From Vicugna vicugna (lineage: Eukaryota): 30,310 nt of DNA. This document shows, one piece after another, positions 3,029-30,310 of this stretch. The notes under the pieces were generated by a model that was not told the DNA's origin, ran no database searches, and saw only the letters and a program-made list of their open reading frames with translations. The stretch is taken from the NCBI GenBank assembly GCA_013265495.1, contig MU057700.1, forward strand, positions 558,001 to 588,310. Direction: 5' to 3'. The translations under genes and the position numbers were made by a program. The stretch's first letter is position 1; each line of letters begins with the position of its first letter.

Positions 3029-3193
3029 GAAGAGCAGCCAAGATGGCAGAGTAGAAGGACCTAATCTTACCTCCTCTCACAAGCACGCCAAAATGGCAAC
3101 TAATGGCAACTAACTCTAGAATAACCATTGATGAAAGAGACTGGAACCTGCCAGAAATTATCTTCTAGGAATAAAGACATAAATAAGGAACCA

Positions 3194-3290
3194 GAGGGGA
3201 GGGCATAGCTCAGTGGTAGAGTGTCTGCTTAGTGAGCACAAGGCCATGGGCTCAATCCCCAGTACATTCATTAAAAAATAAATAAATAAG
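3194..3290 (+). mobile_element. tRNA-derived SINE (Vic-1-like), 5' part
   Basis: ggggagggcatagctcagtggtagag...; Pol III A box TAGCTCAGTGG 3206-3216, degenerate B box ggctcaatccc 3249-3259, then an (aaat)n linker. Confidence 0.85.
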
Positions 3291-4227
3291 ATTTATGGTC
3301 AAGATGGTGGTATGGTAGGACCATGAGCTCACTTCTCGTGACTACAATGAAGCCACAACTGAAAGCTAAACAGCCATTGAAAAAATGACTGGAACCTAGC
3401 AAAGAAGATCTTCTGCAACTGGAAACATAAAGAAGAAACCAGGGCAGGATGGTAGGAGGGGTGTGCTCGTGATATAATTGGGCCCTATATCCCTGGGGTA
3501 GACGATCCCACAAGCTGAAGAATAGTTAAGTTGCAGAGGCCCTCCCACAGGAGTAAGAGCTCTAAGCCCCATGTCAGTCTCCCCAGCCTGGGTTACCAGC
3601 ATTGGGAGGAGAAGGAGACCCCAGGACATCTGGTTTTGAAGGCCAGTGGGGCTTGGCTCTGGGAGCCTCATGGGACTGGGGGAAACGGAGACTCGACTAG
3701 CTTGAGAAGTGTACATGGAAACACACATGTACTAGGTCCAAGGGCAGAAACAGTGATTTCATAGGAATCTGGGCCAGACCTGCCTGCTGGATTTGGAGGG
3801 TCTCCTGGGGACATGAGGGACAGCTGTGGCTCACTCAGGGGACATAAAAACTGGTGGCAGACATTCTGGGAGTGTTCATCTATATGAGCTTTCCTGGAAG
3901 CTGACATCTTGATTGGATCATTAGCACTAAGACCTAGCCCCACCTAACAGCCTGTAGGGCTGCCTCAGGCCAAACAACATACAGGGTGGGGAACACAGCC
4001 CCACCCATCAGCAGACTTCTTAAGCCACAAAGGCCTCTAGACACAGGCTTACCCACCAGAGATCCAGGAACAAGCTTCACCCAGCAGTGTGCAGGCACTG
4101 GCTCCTCCTGCCAGGAAACCTGCATAAGCCTCCAGTCGAACCTCATCCACCAGGGGCAGATACTAGAAATAAGAAAACAACAATACCAAAGTCTGTGGAA
4201 GGAATGCACAAACACAAAGAAAGACAG

Positions 4228-5113
4228 ATGATCTGAGGCAGCAAAAGAATATTTCCCAGGCCAAGGCACAAGTTAAAATCCCAGAAGAAGAAATAAGTGA
4301 TGAGGAGATAGGTAATTTGTCTAAGAAAGAGTTTAAAGTAATGACGGTGAAGATGTTCAGAGAACTCAAGAGGAGTATAGATGCACAGAGTGAAGTTTTC
4401 AGCAAAGAGGTGAAAAATATAAAGAATACCCAAACAGAGTTGAAGAATAAAATCACTGAAATGAGCAATACACTAGAAGGAACCAAGAATAGACCAAATG
4501 CAGCAGAAGTAAGCTAGAAGACAGATTAGCTGAAATCACTACTTCAGAACAGAAAAAGGAAAAAAAGAATTAAAAGGAATGAGGATAGTTTAAGAGAACT
4601 CTGGGACAACATGAAGCACTCTAATATTTGCATTACAGTGGTCCCAGAAAGGAAAGACAGAGAGAAAGGACCTGAGAACATTTTTGGAGAGATAATACCC
4701 CAAAACTTCCCCAACTTGGGAAAAGAAACAGTCACCCAAGTCCTGGAAGTGCAGAGAGTACCACACAGAATCAGCCCAAAGAAGAACACATCAAAGCATA
4801 TAGTCATCAAATTGACAAAAATTAAGGATAAGGAGAAAATATTAAAATCAGCAACAGAAAAGCAACAAATAACATACAAGGAATCTCCCATAAGGTTATC
4901 AGCTGATTTTTCAGCAGAAACTCTACAAGTCAGAAGGGAGTGGCATGATATATTTAAAGTGATGCAAGGGGGAAACTTACAACCAAGAATACTCTACCCA
5001 GCAAGGCTCTCATTCAGACTTGGAGAAATCAAAAGCTTCACAGATAAACAAAGCTAATAGATTTCAGCACCACCAAACCAGCTTTACGACATATATTAAA
5101 GGACCTTCTCTAG
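4228..5113 (+). pseudogene. Disrupted L1 ORF1p (RNA-binding protein) of element B
   Basis: KEFKVMTVKMFRELK, NIFGEIIPQNFPNL, HIVIKLTKIKDKEKILK, PIRLSADFSAETLQVRREWHDIFKVM, QPRILYPARLSF; stop TAG 5111-5113; several stops/frameshifts; start position approximate. Confidence 0.9.
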
Positions 5114-5173
5114 TCATCAAACCATAGGGAAAGAGAACAAAAAGAAGAAAGAGAAAAAAAAAAGACCTACAAA

Positions 5174-5690
5174 AGATTGTTTTAGCTGTCTGGGGTCTTT
5201 TGTGGTTCTGGTGATTTTTGTAATTGTTTGTTCTAGTTCTTTGAGGAATCTCATGAGTATTTTGATGGGGGTTGTGTTGGATCTGTGGATTTCTTTGGAT
5301 AGTGTGGCCATTTTGATAGTGTTGATTCTTCCAACCCAAGAGCACAAGAAATCTTTCCATTTCTTTGTGTCATTTTGGTTTTTGGAGTAATGGTAACCTC
5401 CTTGGTTAAGTTTACTTCTAGGTATTTTGTTGTTTTTGATGCAATGGAAATGTTTATGCCAGTTATAAAATTCTGGTTTTTGAAATGAAAAAAGAAAAGT
5501 GAATGAAGGGCTGCAAATGGCAAAATGTCCTTTCTTATGGGTGAGTTGTCTTCCTTTACATATATATATATATGCTACATTGTCATTATCTATTCAATTA
5601 TTGATGTGTACTTAGGATGCTTCTATGTCTTGGCAATTATAAATAGTGTTGCTGTTAATAGCAGGGTGTATGTATCTTTTTGAGTTAATT
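5174..5690 (-). mobile_element. Two non-collinear antisense L1 ORF2 fragments inside element B
   Basis: 5174-5460 reads on the minus strand as CSWVGRINTIKMATLSK and TTKYLEVNLTKEV (post-RT region); ~5515-5690 is the antisense of the ORF2 C-terminal region. Confidence 0.85.
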
Positions 5691-5831
5691 CTTATTTTGT
5701 AGTTGGCTTTATTCCTTTTATAACTATATAAGTTTAAAAAGCTAAAGCTCTAAGCGTTCTTAGAAACAATGAAGGGTATATATATGTAAATTACAAAATA
5801 TATGAGCAGTTAAAAAAAAAAGAAGAAGAAG

Positions 5832-6349
5832 AAACGAGCCATGAAAGACATGGAAGAAACTTAAAGGACATATTACTAAATGAAAGAAGCCAATCTGAAA
5901 AGGCTACGAACTATATGATTCCAACCAAATGACATTCTGGAAAAGACACAGCTACAGAAACAATAAAAAAGATTATGGTTTCCAGGAGCTTGGGGAAAGG
6001 GAGGGAGGGAGGAATGAATAGATGGAGCACAAGGGATTTTCAAGGAAATGAAATTATTCTGTATGATACTATAGTGGTGGCTACATGTCATTATGCATTT
6101 GTCAAAACCCATAGAATGTACAACATCAAGAGTGAATCCTAATGTGAACTGTGGACTTTGGTTGATAGTAATGTGTCCATGTTGGTTTATTGACTGTACC
6201 AAACATGCCACACTGATGAGGAATGTTGAAGGTAGGGGAATATATATGTGTGGGTGGGGAGGGCTATGTGTGAACTTTCTGTATTTTCTGCTCAATTCTG
6301 TTATAAACCTGAAACTGCTCTAAAAAAATTAAGTCTATTAATTAAAAAA
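5832..6349 (+). mobile_element. L1MC-like 3' end forming the tail of element B
   Basis: gaagccaatctgaaaaggctac, ttgtcaaaacccatagaatgtacaac, cctaatgtgaactgtggactttgg, aacctgaaactgctctaaaaaa are typical of L1MC1-type 3' ends. Confidence 0.8.
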
Positions 6350-6425
6350 AAATAAGCCTGATTACCTTTCCCCCAGTAAAACAACAACCAAAAAACCCCA
6401 AAAGCTGAAAGAAAACAAAAAACCA
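6350..6425 (+). mobile_element. 3' part of the split Vic-1-like SINE and its A-rich tail
   Basis: aaataagcctgattacctttccccc followed by a degenerate poly(A); matches the aaataaacctaattacctcccc tail I recall for this SINE; ends at aacca, which also precedes the 5' half. Confidence 0.7.
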
Positions 6426-7379
6426 CAATGAGATGAGTAGGAGGGGTGGACTCCCAATATAATCAAATCCCATACCCCCTGGGTGGGTGACCCACAAACT
6501 GGAGAATAATTATATTACAGAGGTTCTCCCATAGGAGTGAGATTTGTGAGTCTCATGTCAGGTTTCCAGTCCAGGGGTCTGGCCCTGGGAAGGAGCCCCC
6601 AGTTCATTTGGATTTGAAGGTCAGAGGGACATGATTGCAGGAGCTTCACAGTATTTGGGGAAATAGAGACTTCACTCTTAAAGGGCACATACAAATTACA
6701 CACACTGGGACCAAGGGTGAAATCAGTAATTTGAAAGAAGCCTGAGCTAGACCTACCTGCTGGTCTTGGAGAGTCTCCTGGGGAAGCAGGGGCAGCTGTG
6801 GCTCACCCTGGAACATAGACACTGGTGGTGGACATATCAGTGATCATTTTCTGCTTGAGTTCTCCTGGAGGCTGATGTCTTAGCACCAATACCTGGCCCC
6901 ACCCAACAGCCTGTAGGCTGCAGTGCTCCAATGCCTCCGGCCAGACAACAAACTGGGTGGAGACACAGCCCCATCCATCAGCAGACTGCCTATGACTTCC
7001 CGAGCCTACAGCTACCTACAGACATGCCCCTAGACACAGCCCTGCCCGCCAGAGGGTCAAGGCCCAGTTCCACCCACCAGTGGGCAGACACCAGCCCTTT
7101 CCACTAGGAAACATGCACAAGCCTATATACCAGCCTCACTCACCAGGGGGCAGACACCAGAAGCAAGAAAACTATAGTCAGTCTTGCAGCCTGAAGACCA
7201 AATCTGCAAGACAGGCCAGATGCTACCCTGAGATCAGCTGTCCCCTGGTCCTTGGGGATGAGAGGGGAGTGAACTGCTGGGATGCATAGAACAGCTCTTA
7301 CAGAGGGCCACACCTCCAAGGTCAAGAAATGTAACTAACCTATCACATACACAACAATACAAACAGTAATTTAGACAAA

Positions 7380-8255
7380 ATGAGGTGACTGAGGAAGGAA
7401 CGAGATAAAACCCCAGAAGAAGAACTGTGACATGAAGATAGGCAATCTATCTGAGAAATAATTCATAGTAATGATCCTGAAGATGATAAAAGAACTCAGG
7501 GGATAATGAATGCACAGAGCAAGAAGTTAGAAGTTTTTAACAAAGAATTAGAAAATATAAAAACAACGAAACAGAACTGAAGAATACAATAACTGAAATG
7601 AAAAAAAAATGCACTAGAAGGAATTGATCGTAGACTAGATGAGGGAAAAGAATGGATCAGTGAGCTGGAAGACAAAGCAGTAGAAATCACTGCCACCAAA
7701 CAGAAAAAGGGAAAAAGAATGAAAAGAAGTGAGGACACTTTAAGAGACCTCTGGGACAATATCAAGCATGCTAATATTCTCATTATAGGAATCCAAGAAG
7801 GAGAAGAGAGGGCCTGAGAAAATATTTGAAGAGATAATAGCTGAAAACTTGCCTAACCTGGGAAGGGAACTACTCACCCACATCCAGGAAGTGCAGAGTC
7901 CCATACAGGATTAATCTAAAGAAGAAAACACCAAGACACATTGTAATCAAAATGAAAAACACTGAAGATAAAGAGAAAACATTAAAAACAACAAGGGAAA
8001 ATAAAATATAACATACAAGGGAACTCCCATAAGTCTCTCAGCTGATTTTTCAGCCAAAACTCTGCAGGCCAGAAGGAGGTGTCATGATATACTGAAAGTG
8101 ATGAGAGAGAAAAACCTACAACCAATAATACTCTACCCAGCAAGGCTCTCATTCACATTTGATGGAGAAATCGAAAGCTTTACAGATAAGCAAAAGTAAA
8201 AGAATTCAGCACCACCAAATCAGCTTTACAACAAAGGCTAAAGGAACTTCTCTAG
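7380..8255 (+). pseudogene. Disrupted L1 ORF1p of element A
   Basis: Collinear with ORF1 of element B (ctctgggacaa, gctgatttttcagc, tactctacccagcaaggctctcattc); ATG 7380, TAG 8253-8255; multiple stops and frameshifts. Confidence 0.88.
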
Positions 8256-8538
8256 GCAGAAAAGGAAAGGCCACAACTTGAAACAAGAAAATTACAAAAT
8301 AGAAAAGCTCACTGGTAAAGGTTAGCATACAATGAAGGTAGGAAATTATGCACACACAAAGCTAGTAGGGAGGTTAAAAGACAAAGATGGTAAAATCATC
8401 TCTAGCCACAATACACAGTTAAGCATACACAAAACAGTTAGATGCAATATCAAAAACAGTAGTTGTGAAGGGAAGAAAGTACAAATGCAGAGTAGCTAAA
8501 ATGCATTTGAAATTAAGAGACCAACAACTTAAAACAAG

Positions 8539-8541
<3 letters not shown>

Positions 8542-8578
<37 letters not shown>
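8542..8578. repeat. (AC)n microsatellite in L1 inter-ORF spacer
   Basis: About 18 perfect AC units. Confidence 0.97.
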
Positions 8579-8584
<6 letters not shown>

Positions 8585-9780
8585 ATGGTAACTGTAAAAC
8601 AAAAATCTATAATAAATATATGCACAAAAAAAGAAAAAAGAATCCAAACATAACAGTAAAGATAGTCATCAAATCACAACAGAAGAGAACAAAAGAAGAA
8701 AGAGGGGGGAAAACTACAAAAAAAATCCAAAACAATTAGCAAAATGGTAATAGGAAAATACGCATCAATAACTATAAATGTAAATGGGCTAAATGCTCCA
8801 ACCAAAAGACACAGATTGGCTGAATGGATACAAAAACAGGACCTATATATGCTGCCTGCAAGAGACTCACTCAGATCTAGAGTCATATACAGACTAAAAG
8901 TGAGGGTCTAGAAAAAAGTATCCCATGCAAATAGAAATCAAATAAAGCTGAAGTAGCAATATTTATTTCAGACAAAATAAACTTTAAAATAAAAACTGTT
9001 ACAAGAGACAACGAAGGACACTACATAATGATCAAAGGATCAATCCAAAAAGAAGTTATAACAATTCTAAATATATATGCACCCAACATAGGAGCACCAC
9101 AATATATAATATATAAGGTAAATGTTAAAAAAGACATAAAAGGAGAAATTAACAGTAACATAATGAAAGTGGGGAACTTTAACACCTCACTTACATCAAT
9201 GGACAGATCATCAAGACAGAAAATCAAAAAGGAAACAGACCTTAAATGACATATTAGACCAGATGGATTTAATTGATATTTAGAGTATTCTATCTGGAAG
9301 CAGCAGAATACACATTCTTTTCAAGTGCACATGGAACATTCTTCAGGACAGATCACATGCTAGGCCACAAAGCAAGCCTTGGTAAATTTAAGAAAACTGA
9401 AATCATATCAAATATCTTTTCCAACCACAATACCATGAGGCTAGAAATCAACTACAAGAAAAAAAAACTGTGAAAAACACAAACACGTGGAGGCTAAACA
9501 ATACACTACTAAATAACCAATTGATCATTGGAAAAAAACCTGGAGAGAAATAAAAGTGAAAACATGATGATCCAAAACCTATGGGACACAGCAAAAGCAG
9601 TTTTACCAGGGAAGTTTATAGCAATACAAGCTTATCTCAGGAAACAAGAAAAATCTCAAGTAAACAACCTAAACTTAACACCTAAAGCAACAAGAGAAGG
9701 AAGAACAAAGAAAACCCAAAATTAGTAGAAGGAAAGAAATGATAGAGAATAGAGCAGAAATAAATGAACTAGAGACTAAA

Positions 9781-9800
9781 GAGAGAGAGAGAGAGAGAGA
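9781..9800. repeat. (GA)n microsatellite within ORF2
   Basis: gagagagagagagagagaga. Confidence 0.9.
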
Positions 9801-12404
9801 AGATCAATGAAACTGAAAGCTGTTTCTTTGAAAAGATAGACAAAATTGATAAACCTTTAGCCAGACTCATTAAGAAAAAAAGAGAGAGGGCCCTAATAAA
9901 AAAATTCAGAAATGAAAAAGGAGAAGTTACAACTGACATCACAGAAATACAAAGGACCAAAAGAGACTACTATGTGCCAATAAAATGGACAACCTGGAAG
10001 AAACAGACAAATTCTTAGAAAGTTACAATCTCTCAAAACTGAACCAGGAAGAAATAGAAGCTATGAACAGATCAATTACCAGTACTAAAATTGAATCAGT
10101 AATTTAAAAACTTCCAACAAACAAAAGTCCAGGACCAGATGGCTTCACAGGTAAATTCTACAAAACATTTAGAGAAGACTTAACACTATCCTTCTGAAAC
10201 TACTTCAACAAACTTCAGAGGAGTGAACACTTCTAAACTCATTCTATGGGGCCCCCATCACCCTGATACTAAAACCAGACAATGATATCACACAAAAAGA
10301 AAATACAGTTCAATATCACTAATGAACATAGATGTAAAAATTCTCAACAAAATACTAGCAAACCGACTCCAAAAATATATTAAAAATATCAAACCCCACA
10401 ATCAAGTGGGATTTATTCCAGGGATGCAAGGGATTTTTCAGTATCCACAAATCAATCAATGTGATACACCATATTTATAAATTGAAGAACAAAAACCATA
10501 TGATTATTTCAATAGATGCAGAAAAATGTTGTGATAAAATTCAACATCCATTTATGATAAAAGTTCTTCAGGAAGTGGGCATAGAGGGAATATACCTCAA
10601 CATAATAAAGGTCATATGTGACAAACCCACAGCTAAAATCATACTCAATAGCAAAAAGCTGAAAGCATTCCCTCTAAAATGAGAAAAAAGATAAGAATTC
10701 CCACTCTAGCCACTTTTATTCAACATAGTTTTGGAAGACCTACCCACAGCAATCAGAGAAGGAAAAGAAATAAAAGGAATCCAAATCGGAAAAGAAGTAA
10801 AAATATCACTGTTTGCAGACAATGTGAATATATACATAGAAAATCCTAAAAATGGCACCAGGAAACTACTAGAACTCAACAACGAATTCGTTAAAGTTAC
10901 CAGATTAAAAATTAATATACAGAAATCTGTTGCATTTCTATACATTAACAATGAAATATTGGAAAGAGAAATTAAGGAAACAATCCCATTCACCGCTACA
11001 TCAAAAAGAACAAAATACCTAAGAATAAGTCTACCTAAGGAGACAAAGGAACTGTACTCTGAAAACTGTAAGACACTGATGAAAGAAACTGAAGAGGACA
11101 CAAATGAATGGAAAGATATATCATGTTTTTAGGTTAGAAGAATCAGTACTGTTAAAATGACTGTACTACCCAAGGAAACCTACAGATTCAATGCAATTCC
11201 TACCAAATTATCAATGGCATTTTTCACAGAACTAGGATAAAAAATTTTAGAATTTGTGTGGAAGCACAAAAGACCCCAAATAGCCAAAACAATCTTGAGA
11301 AAGAAAAACAGAGCTAGAAGAATCATCCTCCCTGACTTCAGACCATTCTACAAAGCTACAGTAATCAAAACAGTATGGTACTGTCACCAAAACAGATATA
11401 AAGAACTATGGGACAGAATAGAAAGCCCAGAAATAAACTCACACACTTATGGTCAATTAATCTACAACAAAAGATGCAAAAATATACAATGGAGAAAAGA
11501 TAATCTCTTCAATAAGTGGTGCTGGGAAAACTGACAGTTACATGTAAAAGAATGAAATTAGAGCATTCTCTAACACCATATACAAAAATAAACTCAAAAT
11601 GGATTAAAGATCTAAATGTAAGACCAAATATTATAAAACTCCTAGAGGAAAACATAGGCAGAACACTCTTTGACATAAATTGCAGCAATATGTTTTTGGA
11701 TCCATCTCTGAAAGTAATGGAAATAAAAACAAAAACAAACAAATGGGACCTAATTAAATTTAAAAGCTTTTGCACAGCAAAAGAAACCATAAACAAAACA
11801 AAAAGACAACCTATGGAATGGGAGAAAATATTTGCAAAGAATGACCTACAACAGATTAATTTCCAAAATATATAAGCAGCTCACACAGGTCAATATCAAA
11901 AAACAAAAACAAAAACAAAAAACCCAATCCAGAAATGTGCAGATCTAAATAGATATTTCTCCAAAGAAGACATACAGATAGCAAACCAACTCCAAAAATA
12001 TATTAAACAGACACATAAAAAGATACTCAAAATCACTAATTATCAGAGAAATGCAAATGAAAACTACAATGAGGTATCACCTCACACTGGTCAGAATGGC
12101 CATCATTAAAAAATCTACAAGTAATAAATCCTGGAGAGGGTTTGGAGAAAAAGAAACCCTCCTACATTGTTGGTGGTAATATAAATTGGTGTAGCCACTA
12201 TGAAAAACAGTATGAAAGTTTCTTAAAGAACTGAAAATAGAGTTGCCATATGATCCAGCAATCCCACTCCTGGGCATATGACTGGAGGAAACTCCAAGAT
12301 ACATACACCCCAGTGCTCCCAGCAGCACTATTTACAATAGCCAAGACATGGAAGCAACATAAATGTCCATCGACAGATGAATGGATAAATAAGATATGGC
12401 ACAT

Positions 12405-12453
<49 letters not shown>
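12405..12453. repeat. Compound (AC)n(GC)n(AC)n microsatellite
   Basis: acacacacgcgcgcacacac...; alternating purine-pyrimidine tract. Confidence 0.97.
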
Positions 12454-12455
<2 letters not shown>

Positions 12456-12974
12456 AATATTACTCAGCCATAAAAAAGAATGAAATAATGCCATTTGTAG
12501 CAACACAGAAGGACCTACAGATTATCATACTAAGCGAAGGAAGTCAGACAGAAAGACACATATCATATGACATCACTTATATGTGGAATCTGAAAAAAAT
12601 GATAGAAATGAACTTATTTACAAAATAGAATAGACTCACAGAGATAGAGAACAAACAAATTTCTGGTTACCAAACGGGAAAACCAAGGAGTGGGGAGGGA
12701 TAAATTAGGAGTTTGGTATTAATATACACTCACTACTATATATAAAATAGATAAACAACAAGTACCTGCTGTATAGCACAGAGAACTATATTCAATATCT
12801 TATAATAAACTATAATGGAAAAAGAATCTGAAAAAGAACATATAAAAACTGAATTACTTTGCTGAAAACCTGAAACTAACACAACACTGTCAATTAACTA
12901 CACTTCAATAAAAAATGGTTAACAAAAAAACATTAAAGATGTCAGTAAATTTATTTTTACCATGTGGGGATGAC

Positions 12975-14399
12975 CAAACCTGCAAGACTCTCACCTCCTG
13001 ATTTGAAAACTTACTCTAAAGCTAAAATAATCAAAACAATGTGGTACTGGCATAAAGATAAACATATAAATCTATGGATTTGAATTCAGAGTCTAAAAGT
13101 AAACCCAGATATCTATGGTCAAATGGTGCCAAGTCCATTCAAACAGTGGAAAGAATAATATTTTCAACAAATGATGCTGGGACAACTGGATAGCCACTTG
13201 TGAAAGAATCAGATTGGACCCTTACCTCACACCATTTATGAAAATTAACTCAATAAGTAGCAAGGACATAAATGTAAGAGCTAAAACTATAAACCCTTAG
13301 AAGAAAACAAGGAACAAATCTTCATCACTTTGGATTTGGTACCAACTTCTTAGATATGAAATAAAAAAACATAAGCAACAAAAGAAAAGATAGATAATTT
13401 GGAATTGATTCAGTTTTAAAACCCTCCATACATCAAAGGAAACCATCAAGAAAGTAAAAAGACACCCACAGAATGAGAGAAATAATTTCAAAATATATAT
13501 CTGGTATTCAGAATATATAAAGAACTAAAACTCAACAACAAAAGGACTAACAGCCTAATTTTTAAAATGGGCAAAGGACTTGAATAGACTTATCTGCAAG
13601 GAAGATATACAAATAGCCAACAAGAACATGAAAGGACACTCAACATCATTAGCCATTAAGGAAACGCAAATCAAAACCACAATGGGATATTCCTTCACAT
13701 ACGTTAGGATGACTGTAATGAAAAATAAATGGGAAATAACAAGTGTTGTTGAGGATGTGGAGAAACTGAAATCTTCAAACACCGCATCTGGGAATGTAAA
13801 ATGGTGCAGCTACTGTCGAAAACAGTTTGATGATTCTTCAGTAAATTAAACTTAAAATTGCCACATGACTCAGCAATTCCACCCCAGGTAAACACCCAAG
13901 CAAACTGAAAGTTTATGTCTACACAAAAATTTTTACACAAATGTTTGTGGTGACATTGTTCATAATAGCCCATATGTCCGTCAGGTGATGAATGGATAAA
14001 CAAATGTGGTATATTCATATAATGGAATAATATTTAGCCATAAAAAGGAATAAAATATTGATGCATGCTTCAAAATGAATGAACTTGGAAAATATGCTAA
14101 GTGAAATAAGCCAGATATACAAAACCACATATTGTGTGATTCCATCGATATGAAATATCCAGACTAGGCAGATCTATTGAGACAGTAAGCAGAATACTGG
14201 CTTCCAGAGGCTCAGGGGAAGGGTGGTAATCGGGAGTGATTGTTTAATGGTTACAGGGTTTCTTTTGGGGGAGATAAAAATGTTCTGAAACTAGATCATG
14301 GCAATGGCTTCACAGTATTGTGAATGTACTGTAAGCTGCTGAGTTGTCCTCTTTAAAATGGTGACTTTCACATCATGTGAATTTTACCTCAATAAAAAA
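12975..14399 (+). mobile_element. L1MB-type LINE-1, right part (ORF2 3' region, 3'UTR, tail)
   Basis: Continues where 1111-3028 stops (gactctcacctcctgatttgaaaacttac); [13 protein letters not shown]1MB-like 3'UTR ending ttttacctcaataaaaaa. Confidence 0.88.
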
Positions 14400-14959
14400 G
14401 GAGTATTTGATAGAGAAATTCAGAGAGAAAGCCAAGGGAATGCAAAAGAAAAAGATACTGAGAAAAAATGTGTGAAATCTAAATTCTGTTTTCTATATGC
14501 TACAAAGGTTGAGCAAAAGTCAAACTAATAATAAATTGAAATACATGATCCATGGTAAATAGTATTCTAGGAATGACATAAATAAGAGACAGACAAATAG
14601 GAGAGGGATGAAATAGATGATAAACCCTCTAGAGAAGACCTAGAATGTCAAATCTAGAATGTAGAGGCCTCCCAAGCATCCCTCAGCATGAAAAGGTAAC
14701 TCAAGTTCACAGTCAGAACAGCTCAGGTCAAAGGCTATTTTTTCCCTCTGGCTCCACCTTCAACCACTTACATGTGGAAACTTGAGCACCACTTCCAATA
14801 CTTCCATGCTGGTTCTGAGAATGCAGCTCTGGAAATTCTTAGAGCCTGTCCGTGCATTCACGGAAATGTACTGTTCAGCCACACCCTTGGCCTTCCCTTT
14901 GTAGCACGTTTCCTAACAGCTGCATCGCTGGAGAGCTCATTTACTCAGGTGATGACGAG

Positions 14960-15170
14960 ACAGCCACTGTTTATAGAAACCTACCAAGCCCTGGGCGTTC
15001 TACATACGCTGCCCGTTTTATCTGCACACACCCTGAGCAGTGGGCATCTCACCCCTTTTCACAGATGAAGTCAAGGCTCAGTGGCTATAAGTGACCCATC
15101 CAAGGGCCCACACTGGCCAAGGGCAGCATCCACAGTCAAGCCCAGGTGGATGTGACTCCTGAGCTCCATG
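14960..15170 (-). mobile_element. MIR SINE
   Basis: ccccttttcacagatgaagtcaaggctcag...ccaagggcccacac...agcccagg...tgactcc resembles the reverse complement of the MIR core. Confidence 0.75.
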
Positions 15171-17464
15171 CCCCTGTGCAGGCCCTGCTCCCATCCTCCC
15201 TACCACCCTGGGCTTGAGAGAGATGCAGGGCTGGTGGGGTGCAGGGAGCCCCCACCTGCTCTGCTCATGCAGGTGCCCCCAGAACACACACAGACTGGCT
15301 TGGGAGAAGGCAGTGCCCACCCTGGCTGTGCCCTCACCTCTCTGTGTGATCCAGAGGGGCTTGGGGCCAGAGGCAAGGGCCCAGATGTGTGCTCAGATGC
15401 TCCACGAGGCCAGAGGAGGGAGCAGGGGCACAGAGGGCTGGCTACCTACCCAGGGATCAGACGGAGAGCACTCAGGGCCCGGACAGGCCCCAGCAGCAGG
15501 AGGCGGTGGCCCACATTTAAGGAGACTATAAGGGAGGAAGGGTGAGTTCCTGACCACCCCCCTCCTTTATTGACCCACCCAGGGAGACACGTGTGCCAGA
15601 GTAGCAGTGTGGGTATTTGTGCACTGAGGCCTGGGAAACTCACATGATCAAAGTGTCTCTGCTCTTGCTTGTTCCCACCAACCACTGGACATGCAGCCAA
15701 CTGTCCAAGTCCCATGCTGGCACGGGGCCAGACACCTGGGGACCTCGGTGTAGAGGATCTTGTCCTGAGCTGGGTCATCCTGTGCCAGCCCTGCCCTCCC
15801 TCCAGCCCTGCTTGGTCCCCTGCACAGGTCGGCAGGGACTCCTGCCCCTGAGCTTTGCTGCAGGTGTTCTGCTGCCCACACCTGTGTCTCTGGCCTGCAA
15901 AGTCACACCCAGTTCAGCCGGGTCCTTTGTGGGTCTTCTCTGATGGCTCAGACAAGGTGAGGAAAGCCTTTCACAGGGTCCCATGTCATGTGGCCTATGC
16001 CTCCCCATGGGACCACCCTGGATTCTTCAAAGTCAGGCTGTCTTTAAGTCCTGTCTGCAAACGGGAGCCTCCTGGGCAGCCCTGGCAAGCGCCTGGCCTG
16101 CTGTGGGAAGCGGGGTCTGTGGGCACGGACAGCACCAGGACAGGCTGGGGAATCCTAGCTCACCTGCCTTGGAGGGAAACTGCCTGGCCAGCCTGCTGTC
16201 TCTGGATTCCATACTCTCTGAAAAACTGAGTCACAGCTTGGGGCGGCCCAAGCAGGATTGTCCCTGGGCAACTGCAGAGAGGACATTTTTAGGTTCTGGT
16301 GTGTTGTTTCATAAGAAAACATTTTTAGACCAAATTCTTTCTGAGTGGTAACATGTAGCTTCCAGCTAATTATGCAATTAATCAGCAGGAGTGGGTTGGT
16401 GTGAGCGAGCAAGTGAGGAGCACGCAGTGGCACCCCCCAACTGGGACAACACGCAGAAAGGCCACGGCCACATAGCGCAGAGGCCACACTGAGTCCTCCC
16501 TCCCTCAGCCCAGCCGAGCGCTGACTCCTGCAGGGAAACGGGGCGCTCTAGCCAGGGGCTGGAGCCGCGTCCTCACAACTGCAGCTCCCCCAAGAGAAAA
16601 AGAAAGAGAAAGGGACCATCGGGGTGGACAGGGCTGCCCTTCTCCTGGGAAGTAAGATGCTCTGGGCCCTGCAGAAGTCACAAGTCTGGGAGCCAATTTA
16701 CCCCATGGGGGCCTGTGGTGCAGGGGTGCAGCACACAGCTATATTGGAGAGTGGGGCCGAGAGCGTATCAGGCGCACAGCACAGCCTGACTCAGGGCTAC
16801 CTCCTCGTCTGAATTCACACAAAGGCTCCCTAAGAGTCAGGGCAGTTCAGAGTTGTTCCCGGGCAGCCCTGCTGAGCCAAAGTGTGGGTGACTGAGCTGC
16901 AGAGGGCGCGGCCTTTCCTCTGCTGGATTCTAGGAGGAGTCCAGCCACTGGCAGACATGTCACTGCTCCTAGGGACAGCAGCATGTTCTGTCCCAGTGAC
17001 CACAGTGAAGATGAGCCCTCTGACTGGCTGTGGCTGTCACACCTGGTGGGTCTCTGAGGGTTGCCTGCTGTTGTCCCTGCACTGTGAGCACCGTGTGGTT
17101 TCTGCATTCAGACCCTGGAGTTTCTGCCATGGGGCAGGAGATTGCAGTGGGTGATCAGTGTCATTTTTGTCTTTCCCTTTTACTCTCTGCTCCCAAAAAG
17201 AGGTCATTCTGACTTTTCGAAAGGTCTACATTAACAACACTTCACTCAGTCATCAAGGCAGTGGTTTCTGGCAAAGAGAGGTGAAACTGGCCTGGAGACA
17301 CTTCCCACCTCCTCTGATGCAGTAAGGGTTGCATGGAGTTGAGGAAAGCACCTGCTTCCACCATGCTGGCCCTGACAGGAGCCCCACTTCGTCCCTGGCC
17401 CCACCATGTGGCCACAGCATCCCCAAGAGAGGCTCCTGACTCCCCAGATAGTCCCAGAGCCTCC

Positions 17465-17509
17465 TGCCTTGCCCTTTGCCCTTGGCCCTTTGCCCTTTGC
17501 CTTTTGCCC
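17465..17509. repeat. 7-mer tandem repeat (TTGCCCT), about 6 imperfect units
   Basis: tgccttgccctttgcccttggccctttgccctttgccttttgccc. Confidence 0.85.
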
Positions 17510-18394
17510 AGCATCACTCTGCCTGAAAAACTCCTTGACTTTTGTCTTGGTCAACTGCTGGCTTGTAGTGAAGCTTGACCCCAGACTCCAGCCCACCCTG
17601 GAGACACTGCCGACGGCCTTTACACCCTTCATCCGGCCTGGTGGGTGTCTGCTTAGACACCTGTCCCCTCCCTAGAGGGAGCACCTCTGAAACCCGTGTT
17701 GACAGGGTACTGGCATCACTATCACTGGCCCCAAGGGCTCCTCCCGGCACTCCTCCAGGGGGTGATGACCCCTCGGCCCAGCTTGAGCTGGGACCTGCCT
17801 GGCTCTGTTCCCAGCCAGCTGGAGGAGGCAGGCAAGCCTGCCACTCACCACCCACGATGCTACTTCAGCGAGTCCCTGCAGCCTGACCCAAAATAGCCCG
17901 AGCTGGAAAAGCAGAGCGTGACAAGGACAAACACAGCCCAGCTGTGGGGAATGCAGCATCCTCACCTCCTACCTACTTGTTCCAGTTCAGCTCGAGCTGC
18001 ATTTCCTTGGAGAAGTCTCCACTGCCAGCCTCAGCCCTCTAGGTGGGCTCACAAGTGTTTGCCACCCCCACCCCTCCTTCAGGCGGGGAGCGTGTACCCC
18101 TGGGTAGGAGCAGCAAGAGGAGGGTGACGAAGCTCCATGGGGAGGACAGGACAGCAGATGAGAGGTGTCACGGAATTTAAGAAGATGGAAATCTGGAGGA
18201 TGAGTGATACCTGATTTTACAAAGCAGAAAAAACTGAACCTTAGCTACTGCCAATGGGGTGGGGATGGGGGACCGGTAAGTGAGAAGCAAGCCTGGTTGC
18301 TAGGGGGTGGGGGCCCTGGGTGTCAAGGGGGGACTTCGGGCTTGCCTCCCACTGGTCTGTTGTCATCTCCTCCCATTTCCCCTCATTCTCACAT

Positions 18395-24353: not shown

Positions 24354-24694
24354 GTTCAGGGAGAGGGAGAGAGGGAGGAATGAATAAATGGAGTACAAGG
24401 GATTTTTAGGGCAATGAAATTATTCTGTATGATACTACAGTGGTGGCTACATGTCGTTATGCATTTGTCAAAACCCTCAGAATGTACATCAAGAATGAAC
24501 CCTAATGTGAACTATGGACTTTGTTTGATAATAATGTGTCCCTGTTGGTTCATCGATTGCACCAAATATGCCACACAGATGAGGGATGTAGGGGAGTATA
24601 TATGTGTGGGTGGGGAGGGCTATGTGTGTTTTCTTCACAGTTCTGCTGTGAACCTGAAACTGCTCTAAAAAATAGTCTATTAATTCAAAAAAAA
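24354..24694 (+). mobile_element. 5'-truncated second copy of the element-B 3' end
   Basis: Aligns to ~5995-6349; A tail at 24687-24694; TSD gtacattca at 24345-24353 and 24695-24703; inserted into a short antisense L1 tail remnant (24300-24725). Confidence 0.85.
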
Positions 24695-25573: not shown

Positions 25574-26833
25574 AAAGTTTATAATTATTATCTGAAATTT
25601 CATATCTGTTACTATCTTGTCATCTGTCAAACCCACACTTAGAAAAGGTAGATGCAATATGAAACCTTGTGTATCGCGGAGGGAAAGAGAATGCTGACTG
25701 TGTGTGTGAGACAGAGAGAGGACTGATCAGGGCTGGGGGCACAGGCTGGCTCAGGCCAGACTCCTGGCTCCCCCAGGACCTGCTCCTGGATGCACTCAGC
25801 CTGGTGCTGCCCACGTCCAACACTTCCAACTCGGAGCTTCCTCAGCCAAGGGGAAGTGGAAGGGGGTGGGGTAGGTGGGCGGAGTGTCACTTCTAATTTC
25901 CTTTGACCAGCTCAAGAAGAAACAGAGCTCGGGTTTCTGAGAGGCTCATAATTAAATGAATTAAAATGTTTTCCTTCACGGTGACTTTGCCAACTCCCGT
26001 CCACCTCTCCCTGGCCCCGTTCCCAGCGAGTGCACAGAGCCTGGGAGGACGGAGAATGACATGTTGTGAGCTTCCAGAGCAATTAGCTGGTGCATCGTCA
26101 TTTTGGGGAGAGATTTATGGCTGGCTTTTGGAGCATTCCAGCCCAGACCTCTGTAGCCAGATCCGTCTGCTGGGGAGGTTCCTGGAAGTGGAGTCTCAAT
26201 ATTAATTCCAATTACAGTCAGATGAGAGCCCATTCATAAGAATTGCCTTCGACAGGCTCCTCTCCTGCCACTCTGGCCTGACCTTGAGCCACCATTGCTG
26301 TCGCCAGCCGTAGAGAGGGAGGAAACTGTCCTGGACCCAGCTCCGGGCTTCCCGGCAAGCTCAGGAGGCAGGCCATGGGTGTGCAGGACTTTGAAGGAGA
26401 GAAAGCACGAGGAGGAAGAATATGAAGGATGTGACATCTCAGCATTTTTAGTCGGAGTACCACCCTAGTACCCCCCTGGATTCTTCTGGAAGGGTGGCAA
26501 TGCAGGGGGCACTGCCTGTGATCTGAGATCTCCCAGACCCTGGGACCACCCTTGGACCTGGTTTTCTGAAACAGACAATCTAGTCCCAGGACAGGGACCC
26601 AATCCTGGAAGGACCCAGAAGGCACTGCAGCCACAGCCTCCAAAGGGGCAGCAGGCGGGCGCTGGGGACAGAGCCTCTGCTCTGACCATCCATGTTTGCT
26701 GGCTGAGCTCCACCCTCGAAGGGTCCCGGGTGAGCAGGCCTGCCTGTGACTGACAGGTGCTCATTATCACATCTGAAGATAGATGTTCCTCATGGTACAG
26801 AGACCCCAAGGACTAAATATAAACCCAAGGAAG

Positions 26834-26988
26834 CAATTACCCGAGTATTGATTATGGATTACGCTAACGACATTACTAATTACATCTCGAGATGTGTATC
26901 CACTGCACCAGCCTGTTAATGGCTTGCCTGAGGTATTAAGGCTGCTAATTGGGAAAAACAGTGGGTTTCTCACCAGCTGTAATTACGG
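26834..26988. promoter_or_regulatory. Candidate homeodomain-site cluster (enhancer-like)
   Basis: About nine TAAT/ATTA cores in ~155 bp of non-repeat DNA, with retained CpGs, inside GC-rich flanks. Confidence 0.4.
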
Positions 26989-27599
26989 GGTCCCTGGAGA
27001 AAGAAGATGGCCAAGGCATGCAGCCTTCCTATCCATGACCCCAGTTTTCCAAGTACCCCTGGTGGCAGAGGTCTCGAGCGAGGGCTGTGTCCATCACCCA
27101 AGACTGAAGTGAGTGCCCAGGTCAGCCAGTGAGTGAGGAAGTGTGGCAGGGGCCCTGCCTCCCTTGCAATCCTGGTGGCTCACAGTGGTCAGGGACTGGG
27201 CCCCTCCCTCCAGGACAGGAAAGTGGGGAAAGCTTTGGGTCCGTCCACCCATGGGGTTTTCTTATACATCTGTCTCTGCTGGGACCGCTTCTCCCCTCTC
27301 CCCTCCGCATCCCTACCTGTGCCTTTACTTGCCTTTCGGTTTCTGCATAGGGTCACTTCTGGAGCTTCCTCCGTGCTCCTCTGACTAGGCCAAGCCTCTA
27401 TCCTCTCAGAGGGCACTTCCTAGGATAAGAGCTGGGACTATCCTCCTCTCCCCAGACCATAAGCTCAGTAAATGGTGACTAAACAGATCTGAATGGATAA
27501 GAGTTAGGGGACCATGCATAGTTCTAGTTATGTGTATGTGTACTTTTAAAAAAAATTTCTGAACATTCTATATATTTGTAATATTCTAAGGTCCTATTT

Positions 27600-27850
27600 T
27601 TGAATAAGATACTTTCCTCATTATATTTTCTTTTATGTTACTGCATTTTACTTACTCAAGGAATCCATGATTATATTTTTTGTTAAAAACTCAGACCTTT
27701 CAGATAAAGTTAAATCCCCTTTTTGCCATTTATCTGCAACCCCAGAGGGGGCAAGGTGTAGGTAGGTGTGGATGCCTCTAGACCTTTTTCTGCACCTGTG
27801 CATACACATTTGTATCCACAGATACACAGAATGTTGTTCTGCATGCCCGT
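27600..27850 (-). mobile_element. L1ME-like 3' fragment, highly diverged
   Basis: AT-rich patch with ccccagaggg...ctagacctttttct...catacacatttgtat typical of antisense L1ME tails. Confidence 0.45.
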
Positions 27851-28164
27851 GGGTGTGTGTGCATGTCTCTCATTCCATGTGCAGAACCAGAGCATGAGAG
27901 AAACAGCAGGAGGCCAATCTAAGCTCATCATAAACAGTTTTATTGACCATCTTGATAAAGGATGAGAAATGACAGCTCTGGATCATCATTAAACATAATG
28001 TGGCCTGTGACTTATATTCCCAGTTGGTGCAGCTGATTCAGGGACTGCTACACAACACTGCTAACAGTTACCATTTTTCCCCTCCTGGGACATGCATTGG
28101 GGTGTTGGGAAGCACACTGGGGGCACTGGGATCACAGGCTCCTTACCCTCCCACCCATCTCCTC

Positions 28165-28260
28165 CCCCACTGCAGCTCAGTTTACTGAGTGGCACCAAAA
28201 CCAGGCCTGGCATACCCATAGGTGCTCAGCGAATACTTGCCAAGGGCATGGGATGAATCC
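28165..28260 (+). mobile_element. LINE-2 3' end
   Basis: ggcctggcatacccataggtgctcagcgaatacttg...gatgaat. Confidence 0.55.
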
Positions 28261-29869
28261 AGGGGGACCCTTGGGAGAACAAGCAGCCTCTAGCCAGTGG
28301 CACCAGTCAGGGCCCCGGTGTGCTTCATCGGATAAAAGAAGGTCTATTTGTAAAGGTAGGGGAGGTCAGAGAAGGTGTGAAGGGACAAAAGCAGGGCATG
28401 GTCATTGCTCTGGAGATGGGGCTTGACGGGAACTGGGCATTTGGTAGAGGATGCCACCACCCATGGCAACCTGGTGATGAGAGTCAGGAGAAGAAAAGGT
28501 CACTCTCTGCTACCTGTTGGTGCCTCCTAATGTCTGAGCCTAGTGGGAGCCAGAGGCCAGGGAGCCTGCAGCGGGACAGAGGTACAGGGACAATGTGTGG
28601 TACTCACTCCTTGGAGCCATCCATGGTGTAGGAGGAGGTGGAGGGCCGGCTCTGTCTCTGAGCACTCCACATGCCCCCTATGGCAGGAGCATGCCCTTCT
28701 GATGCCTGGCTCAGAGGTTTAGCCACAGCCAGAGCCTGAGTAAAAGCAGGGTCTCGGAGGGTTTCCTATCAGCCACCTCAAGGCTCCCACCAGTCCCACC
28801 GCACTCCAGCAGCAGTAGCAGATGGAGTGCGTACCTGGGCATCTGGCCAGGTGCAAGAGGGCTAGGAAACTGAAGCGTACTCCTGTTCCTCTACAGCTGA
28901 TGACCTCAACTGGTGACGTCATCGGGTTTGTCCTGCAGGTGGAGGGCTCCTGAAGTTCAAATAACTCACTGGGGAGGCGGGTGAAGGATGGCGTCAACTG
29001 TAGAGGCTGCGCCAGGAACGCTCCTGCTGGTGTGGAAGGGGCCCCGGCGGGAGGACAAAGCCTTGTGCAGCTGTCTGAGGTTGTGACCCCAGCTCTGAGC
29101 TCAGGAAGGGTTGTGCACAGCTGGGCTGCTTCTGAGTGTGTGACTGAGGTAGGGGGTGGGTACCAGGCCCCGGCATGTGGGACTGCATGGAAACTGCAGG
29201 TAACATGTAGCTAGCCCTCCCCAGGTGCATCCTTTCAACAGAAAGACTGTGAAGGCACTTCCCTTTTTCAAAGAGGGAGGACCCTACCCCGACCTCGGTT
29301 ATATTTGGGCTGGAGATCAGCCCCCACTTGTCTTCTGGTGCCTCCTTTCCACCTGCAGGCCGTTTCCTCCTCTGCTGCCTCCAACCTCTCCCCTCTACAC
29401 CATCTTCCATGCAGGGGTCTCTGGAACAAAAGTCCAGATGCCACTCAGAAACTATCCTTGCTCCCTCTGCCTCTGAATAAAGTGCAGAGCAGGTGTAAGG
29501 GAGCCGAGGAGAGAGCTGGCCCCCCCAGGTGGCTCAAAGGACTCAAGTGTGTCCCTCCACCTCCCGCTGAGACCCATGCGGCCAGGCCTGGGAAGCCAGA
29601 GGTGGTGGCCTCTTCCTTCCCTCGTTGTCCCCGCCAGTGCCCACAGCATCCTGCCGTCCAGTAAAGTTCAGCCCCAGGACCCCAACTTCTCATTACAGTC
29701 ACGGCTTCCCTGGCTTTCCCAAGGCCCTTTCTGAGATGCCACATTGGCCCTCATTTCCCTTTGCCTCAGGAACCCGACTGGTCACCTCTGCGCTTCCCAC
29801 AGAGAATAGACCAGGTCACCACCCAGGGTAGCACTGCTCCCCTGGGGAAGGCTCCTGTGTGGGGCCAGC

Positions 29870-30310
29870 AGGGGCCGACCTGCAGGGCGCCCAGCTGCGC
29901 GCTCAGGCCCAGAGAGCCCTGCCCAGGAGCGCGCGCGGTTCGGAGCAGAAACCCACATCTGCAAGCAACCGCGCCAGGCTGAGCGCGCCGCGGGGCGTCT
30001 CTCGGCAGGGTGGAGGCCCAGCATCAAGGCCCCAGGGCAGCATGTGGACCTGAAAGGCAACCGTGCCGAGTATACTGCGAACAGCAATAGGGGTAGGATG
30101 AGTGAGGGGACCTTGGCTGAGCATCCGTCCAGGGCGCTTCGGTGAGCGATCCGCGCTATATTAAGATGACGGGAGCACTGCCTTTCCTCTCAGCTGTCCC
30201 CGCAGGACCCGCCTCCTCCTGGCAGGTTCCACCCAACGGCCACGCCCCCCACCCCGCAGGGCCCAGCCTCCCCACCTCACTAACCTGTCCTCGCACCTTT
30301 GGTGATGGAG
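29870..30310. promoter_or_regulatory. CpG-rich region, possible edge of a CpG island or promoter
   Basis: Dense CpGs (gcgcgcgcgg, gcgcgccgcggggcg) compared with the rest of the window; TATA-like tatattaa at 30157-30164. Confidence 0.45.

Follow-up and report, generated by a model that had tools for sequence, protein, structure and literature searches.

HAL1 ('half-L1') elements are non-autonomous L1 derivatives that encode only ORF1p, and they have several independent origins in mammals (PMC5753468). Lineage-specific HAL1s entered in Repbase include HAL1_Ssc of the pig (PMC6501411), those of vesper and other bats (HAL1-1A_ML, HAL1-3_ML; PMC3342881), and HAL1-1H_Cpo and others of the guinea pig together with HAL1-1C_Cja of the marmoset (PMC3183009). 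In cell culture, L1 RNAs that lack their 3' part but still bear ORF1 can be mobilised (PMC4859970), and other clades of long interspersed elements (LINEs) have ORF1-only derivatives of their own, HeT-A in Jockey and Ag-Sponge in CR1 (PMC5786205). Here we analyse a 30,310-nucleotide (nt) stretch of the genome of Vicugna vicugna (contig MU057700.1, positions 558,001 to 588,310; hereafter the window, in whose coordinates we give all positions) and a unit of 3059 nt within it, at 3291-6349, which by inspection ends in an A run (6344-6349). We hold it highly probable that this unit is a full-length, decayed copy of an extinct, non-autonomous, L1-derived family; it belongs to the already known HAL1-like kind of element.

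With the lineage-specific Repbase HAL1s of pig, bat, guinea pig and marmoset the unit shares an L1 5' untranslated region (5'UTR), an ORF1 and the lack of endonuclease and reverse transcriptase (RT), and the family to which it belongs shares with them a size of hundreds to thousands of copies and L1-type insertion hallmarks; those families arose separately, each in a single mammalian lineage. It differs from them in its 3' module, a particular patchwork of two antisense scraps, other DNA and a foreign L1 3' end (a comparison of descriptions, not of sequences), and in its host, a camelid, for which the passages of the literature that we located name no HAL1. The mammalian-wide HAL1 and HAL1b, reportedly treated by Smit in 1999 and by Bao and Jurka in 2010 (Gene 465:9), are said in papers citing them to have the same ORF1-only architecture and a presumed dependence on L1 ORF2p, but to be far older. 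The family studied here lies 5-11% from its consensus, and because of this low divergence, and because some copies sit inside a lineage-specific short interspersed element (SINE), we assign it a separate, later origin or lineage. HeT-A and Ag-Sponge are likewise protein-coding, RT-less LINE derivatives that need an autonomous partner (PMC5786205), but they belong to another LINE clade and another host, and no sequence relationship to the unit is expected.

The insertion site and the split SINE

An earlier note on this DNA, made from its letters alone, had proposed that the unit is a discrete insert bounded by aaataag direct repeats, and that the two SINE halves on either side come from one insertion. 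The features of the site, with the evidence for each in brackets, are the following.

3029..3196, + strand: first part of the 5'UTR of a host L1, interrupted by the SINE (alignment to the 5' start of the unit and to two family copies)
3197..3290, + strand: left half of the SINE, 94 nt, tRNA-Ala-derived and of the simple type, with a decayed tRNA-like head and a (TAAA)n linker (genome search, tRNA calls in relatives)
3284..3290, + strand: target-site duplication aaataag, copy 1 (direct sequence inspection)
6350..6356, + strand: target-site duplication aaataag, copy 2 (direct sequence inspection)
6357..6431, + strand: right half of the SINE, with the CCTGATTACC..CCCCC module followed by an A-rich tail (the linker leads straight into this module in 10 of 11 intact relatives)
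6432..12925, + strand: remainder of the host L1, with 5'UTR, ORF1, decayed ORF2 and its own, different 3' end (window BLAST, Pfam)

The genome searches were run against the window's own genome (2.03 Gb). The left half of the SINE gives 1458 first-look candidates; 40 of these were scored, one being the window copy itself, and they match at 84-88% identity. In 10 of 11 intact relatives of 3197-3290 the linker runs directly into CCTAATTACC...CCCC. In the window the bases from 6357, to the right of the unit, read cctgattaccttt ccccc (also given as cctgattacctttccccc before the A-rich tail), and one relative reads AAATAAATAAATAAGCCTAATTACC, which is the window sequence minus the unit and one repeat. 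Because intact relatives join linker to module directly, 3197-3290 and 6357-6431 are one SINE. Both parts of the proposal therefore stand: the repeats flank the unit at 3284-3290 and 6350-6356, and removing it restores the SINE. It is important to note that a 7-nt repeat in A-rich DNA is weak evidence by itself; the restored SINE and the family evidence given below carry the case.

The identity of the SINE comes from its relatives, since ARAGORN calls tRNA-Ala(AGC) in all five of those scanned and no tRNA in the window's own decayed copy. By description it fits vic-1, a 'simple SINE' of camels (PMC3531059).

The same site records the order in which its parts arrived. The host L1 piece at 3029-3196, with which unit positions 3291-3440 align, stops at ...GGAACCAGAG, precisely at the start of the SINE, and the host L1 resumes at 6432. 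Since the host L1 is broken exactly at the SINE, the nesting order is host L1, then SINE, then unit. Further along the host L1, Pfam locates RVT_1 at 10359-11129, and the end of its ORF2 contains a (CA)n microsatellite with a short CG-containing stretch (12405-12455). Directly after its A tail lies an older sense L1 fragment (12960-14400), made of an ORF2 end and a different 3'UTR ending ...tacctcaataaaaaa.

A dispersed family and how it spread

The patchwork appearance of the unit, taken alone, would fit a one-off, locus-specific rearrangement or transduction, in which unrelated repeats came to be nested between two SINE fragments. The earlier note had instead inferred a family, a reading that internal joins confined to this locus would have refuted, and the joins recur elsewhere. 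Probes across three joins (5100-5250, 5400-5560 and 5660-5900) each find 39 or 40 other full-length matches among the 40 scored, at 86-93% identity, with 1249, 1380 and 2348 first-look candidates, respectively. A search with the whole unit fetched 29 other loci, full-length or nearly so, at 84-88% identity; 23 of the 29 run end-to-end in one collinear alignment (from the first 54 nt to the last 30 nt of the unit), and in the remaining six 100-330 nt are missing at the 3' end, 250 nt are missing at the 5' end, or the alignment is interrupted. All 29 have the same ORF2-less layout. The join between the L1-sense module and the first antisense scrap is gap-free in 30 of 30 copies (the window copy and these 29), and only the A/G-rich tract that precedes it differs in length. 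An identical layout at dozens of scored loci on different contigs, and the exact fit of the SINE halves, leave the one-off explanation with a negligible probability; the recurrence of the joins and of the whole unit across the genome refutes it.

The tail of the unit tells the same story when searched alone. Its 10 best genomic hits are all family copies, six of them collinear upstream as far as compared and four 5'-truncated, each at a different point; in none of these 10 is the tail joined to a sense ORF2. Public sequencing runs listed under four organism labels contain about half of the sampled words, which shows no more than that near-identical sequence is present in those runs. The window itself holds a second, short member of the family.

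24359..24690, + strand: second family copy, 5'-truncated to about 335 nt, with an A tail and its own target duplication gtacattca (84% identical to 5993-6352)

We now consider how these copies reached their loci. Their flanks differ from copy to copy, and the copies end in A runs or A-rich simple repeats. Comparing 50 nt around the 5' edge with 95 nt around the 3' edge, we find an exact repeat of at least 10 nt across the flanks in 12 of 30 copies; with the comparison shifted by 300 nt as a control, only one copy of 30 has such a repeat. The median longest flank repeat is 9 nt, as against 6 nt in the control, and several further copies show imperfect duplications by eye. Of the 12 exact duplications, nine begin with AA, the start expected at an L1 endonuclease target. 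Three of the 30 copies (the window copy, L022 and L023) lie inside the (TAAA)n linker of the same tRNA-Ala-derived SINE, a repeated landing site, which suggests that this linker is a favoured L1 endonuclease target. The family has dispersed by retrotransposition, not by DNA duplication, and the collinear copies with their own target duplications bear out the claim of the earlier note that a single RNA carried the entire unit and that the unit is a full-length member of an ORF1-only family without autonomy. Probes of 151-161 nt, taken in 5' to 3' order, give 947, 1249, 1380 and 1603 first-look candidates; such equal-length probes suggest about 10^3 copies, and the modest rise of the counts suggests that 5' truncation in the family is only mild.

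Anatomy of the unit and its proposed origin

Within its boundaries the unit reads, from 5' to 3', as follows.

3291..4232, + strand: L1-type 5'UTR with a full-length 5' end (homology to the host L1 5'UTR, aligned starts of other copies)
4233..5113, + strand: decayed ORF1 (Pfam domains; start and end taken from the open frame of 297 codons in the 30-copy majority consensus)
5114..5172, + strand: tract rich in A and G whose length varies, followed by ACCTACAAAA; the L1-sense module ends here, at the first join (30-copy alignment)
5173..5458, - strand: first antisense L1 ORF2 scrap, internally deleted, from the last part of the RT domain and the sequence just past it (BLAST to host L1 11296-10999, 72-80% identity)
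5459..5568, no strand: first stretch without a match elsewhere in the window (E<=0.01), shared by family copies
5569..5687, - strand: second antisense L1 ORF2 scrap (BLAST and tblastn to host L1 12405-12296, 74% nt identity)
5688..5829, no strand: second stretch without a match, about 140 bp, shared by family copies
5830..6343, + strand: sense L1 tail with ORF2-end remnant, 3'UTR and AATAAA-like signals (weak L1 ORF2-end match)
6344..6349, + strand: short A tail, merging into the A-rich target duplication (direct sequence inspection)

The head of the unit is that of an L1, as the earlier note had it. In BLAST searches within the window, 3448-4178 matches the host L1 5'UTR (6432-7172) at 69% identity and 4263-5116 matches the host L1 ORF1 at 76%, both in sense, so that overall the head (3448-5116) is 69-76% identical to 6432-8258. 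Its 5' start aligns with those of other copies; in these the target duplication ends 0-12 nt upstream. Pfam finds the domains of L1 ORF1p in 4530-5054, namely Transposase_22 (E 2e-21), Tnp_22_dsRBD (E 3e-15) and a partial Tnp_22_trimer. In the window copy the ATG with which ORF1 starts in most copies is replaced by CTG, and three indels shift the frame compared with the family majority. From about 5116 onward, in A/G-rich sequence, the likeness to the host L1 is gradually lost. The A/G-rich tract just after ORF1 (5140-5165 in the window) is about 14 to 45 nt long among the 30 copies and may be what is left of an earlier poly(A) tail.

Beyond the head the unit is a patchwork. Its antisense scraps are placed by BLAST and tblastn against the neighbouring L1, as Pfam gives nothing for them and finds no domain in the three ORFs scanned from 5100-5683. 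The source of the second scrap lies about 1.1 kb nearer the ORF2 end than that of the first, whereas a single inverted L1 would show the opposite order; the two are thus scrambled, in agreement with the earlier note. That note had also left about 140 bp without assignment, and here the picture is fuller: such a stretch exists (5688-5829), and there is a second one (5459-5568), and neither resembles anything else in the window or in the 146 kb of genome sampled.

The same partial agreement applies to the claim that the unit has no sense ORF2. The body of ORF2 is absent in sense (no plus/plus match in the unit to host L1 8300-12300 in the window BLAST), but a weak remnant of the ORF2 end is present in sense, at 5849-6011, where the tail matches the ORF2 ends of other L1s in the window at 62-63%. 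We considered whether the unit could be an autonomous L1, and rejected this identity because there are no sense ORF2 endonuclease and RT domains between ORF1 and the 3'UTR. Beyond the ORF2 remnant the tail resembles neither the host L1 at its 3' end (12600-12925) nor the adjoining older L1, and 6020-6335 has no diverged relatives in the 146 kb of sampled genome. The tail may resemble old L1M/L1MC 3' ends; the earlier note had called it L1MC-like.

To interpret how such a patchwork could behave as one element, we propose the following scheme. The founder would have had an L1 5'UTR with its internal promoter and an intact ORF1 of 297 codons, without endonuclease or reverse transcriptase, followed by a 3' part of about 1.2 kb made of the two antisense ORF2 scraps, the two stretches of other DNA and a sense L1 3' end, the last of which would have supplied the polyadenylation signal. 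Transcribed as a single RNA and coated in cis by its own ORF1p, the element would have been copied at A-rich targets, nicked by the ORF2p of coexisting autonomous L1s, through target-primed reverse transcription. The resulting copies would carry a poly(A) tail and be flanked by a target-site duplication, and many would be 5'-truncated. The window copy would then have landed in the (TAAA)n linker of the tRNA-Ala-derived SINE, which had itself earlier inserted in the 5'UTR of the older host L1.

The founder itself could have arisen in two steps. An L1 RNA polyadenylated just after ORF1 would have inserted into L1-rich DNA, and transcripts of this copy would then have read through the flank until the 3' end of an old L1 provided a poly(A) signal (3' transduction). 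This is suggested by the variable A/G-rich tract in which the L1-sense module ends, right after ORF1, and by a tail unlike the 3' end of the lineage's own L1 (the host L1). The part after ORF1 resembles intergenic DNA of the usual kind, strewn with L1 pieces and closed by an L1 3' end that has a poly(A) signal. We infer this read-through history as the simplest one, as we do the supply of ORF2p in trans and the role of ORF1p; template switching or rearrangement within a master copy is a possible alternative origin of the patchwork.

Some copies appear to have changed their 3' ends again. In L031 and L032, whose upstream flanks differ, the unit breaks at its position 2863 and gives way to foreign sequence, shared by the two for at least 1.5 kb (88.7% identity), which replaces the last 200 nt of the unit (L031:4354-5853, L032:4359-5858); L036 has about 120 nt of the same foreign sequence. 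L031 and L032 look like a longer sub-variant with a remodelled 3' end, and the existence of this variant suggests that 3' remodelling is recurrent in the family. Chimeric RNAs of unrelated pieces, polyadenylated downstream and mobilised by L1, are also known from L1 3' transductions and SVA, a likeness that takes in L031 and L032 as well as the unit; those systems lack the L1 promoter and complete ORF1 that the family here carries.

ORF1, age and place among known families

The majority consensus of the 30 copies, which served for statistics alone, has an ORF1 that stays open for 297 codons after the first ATG and equates to 4233-5113 in the window. An intact consensus ORF1 had been named by the earlier note as something to check, and on this evidence the founder encoded an intact ORF1p of 297 codons. 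The start ATG is kept in 23 of 30 copies, and the family now looks extinct. In the 30-copy sample the Kimura two-parameter (K2P) distance to the consensus is 0.051-0.107 with a mean of 0.067 (0.082 for the window copy), and the mean pairwise K2P distance is 0.128. The narrow spread of these distances suggests a single burst. The mammalian neutral rate is about 1-2.2e-9 per site per year; at such rates the age would be, very roughly, 25-60 million years.

Quantitative inspection of ORF1 gives a less simple answer on selection. Differences from the consensus that occur in one copy are neutral-looking, with 102 of 531 synonymous (0.19, against 0.20-0.26 expected). For variants found in at least three copies the figure is 31 of 94, and the pooled contrast (31:63 against 102:429 for singletons) gives a Fisher p=0.004.

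Several points weigh against reading the unit as a copy of an extinct, ORF1p-encoding HAL1-kind family. The signal of selection on ORF1 becomes weak when transitions and transversions are split (odds ratio 1.3, p=0.32; odds ratio 3.2, p=0.047), and the high-frequency variants are mostly CpG decay; the open consensus ORF1 could therefore reflect a short time from birth to burst. No copy of the 30 has an ORF1 free of stops and frameshifts, a count that is silent on present activity. The 30 copies are the window copy and the best matches to it, hence a biased sample, and the numbers of first-look candidates, which are unscored, are approximate. A parent L1 subfamily was not found; the head was compared with a single L1, that of the host, to which it is 69-76% identical. 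Mobilisation in trans by L1 ORF2p is presumed from the insertion hallmarks.

These points bear directly on the possibility that ORF1 was a mere passenger, in other words that a chimeric read-through transcript of one source locus was passively retroposed by L1, as processed pseudogenes or SVA-type composites are, and that the consensus ORF1 is open only since the burst came soon after the founder arose. The weak selection signal after stratification, the narrow, single-burst distribution of divergence and the fact that all 30 copies are dead fit this account. It is harder to reconcile with about 10^3 copies, many of them full-length (947 against 1603 first-look candidates for the 5' and 3' probes), which is beyond usual passive retrocopy, or with a full L1 5'UTR and complete ORF1 in every full-length copy. 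The non-CpG high-frequency ORF1 variants, at about five synonymous to four non-synonymous against a neutral 1:3, also speak against it, in tiny numbers. On balance we regard a passenger ORF1 as improbable and retain the reading of a HAL1-kind family whose founder encoded ORF1p.

Whether this family is new is a separate question, and here we lean slightly towards a negative answer, namely that it already has an entry in Repbase or Dfam, be it as an alpaca or camel L1/HAL1 or as an artiodactyl-wide ancestor of HAL1_Ssc, and is then neither new nor camelid-specific. A family divergence of 5-11% permits an old origin, although three of the 30 copies lie inside a SINE that by description fits vic-1, so that activity post-dates that SINE. 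Repbase holds the pig HAL1_Ssc (PMC6501411), its curators covered the alpaca genome (PMC3183009), and alpaca entries L1-2_Vpa and LTR2_Vpa stand in a table of PMC6726744. Against an existing entry, the available passages of the literature on HAL1 with camel or alpaca name no camelid HAL1, the sole match being the bat HAL1-3_ML in PMC6726744, and a survey of Camelus transposable elements has no mention of HAL1 or ORF1 in its main text (PMC8605555). A more tentative reading, which we consider possible but rather less probable than an existing entry, is that of an uncatalogued HAL1 born independently in camelids, which would have arisen through premature polyadenylation and read-through, captured a dead L1 3' end as its terminator, reached about 10^3 mostly full-length copies and continued to remodel its 3' end. 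Such a family, if real, would be a dated, stepwise example of the birth of a half-L1 and would show the indifference of the L1 machinery to the 3' end of its template.

In either case the unit adds one more independent, or at least separate, ORF1-only parasite of L1, with an anatomy that hints at premature polyadenylation followed by 3' read-through. No new mechanism is opened by it, and its value is mainly for annotation and for the natural history of transposons. It is easy to see how, without a family-level consensus, the 3 kb unit would probably be annotated as several unrelated L1 pieces in mixed orientation, with the result that the pieces would be given wrong ages and 'ancient' L1 fragments would be counted too often.

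Elsewhere in the window, G+C content is 0.54-0.61 at 15000-18000 and 26000-30000, compared with 0.28-0.45 in the rest, and these two stretches may be CpG islands or parts of genes.

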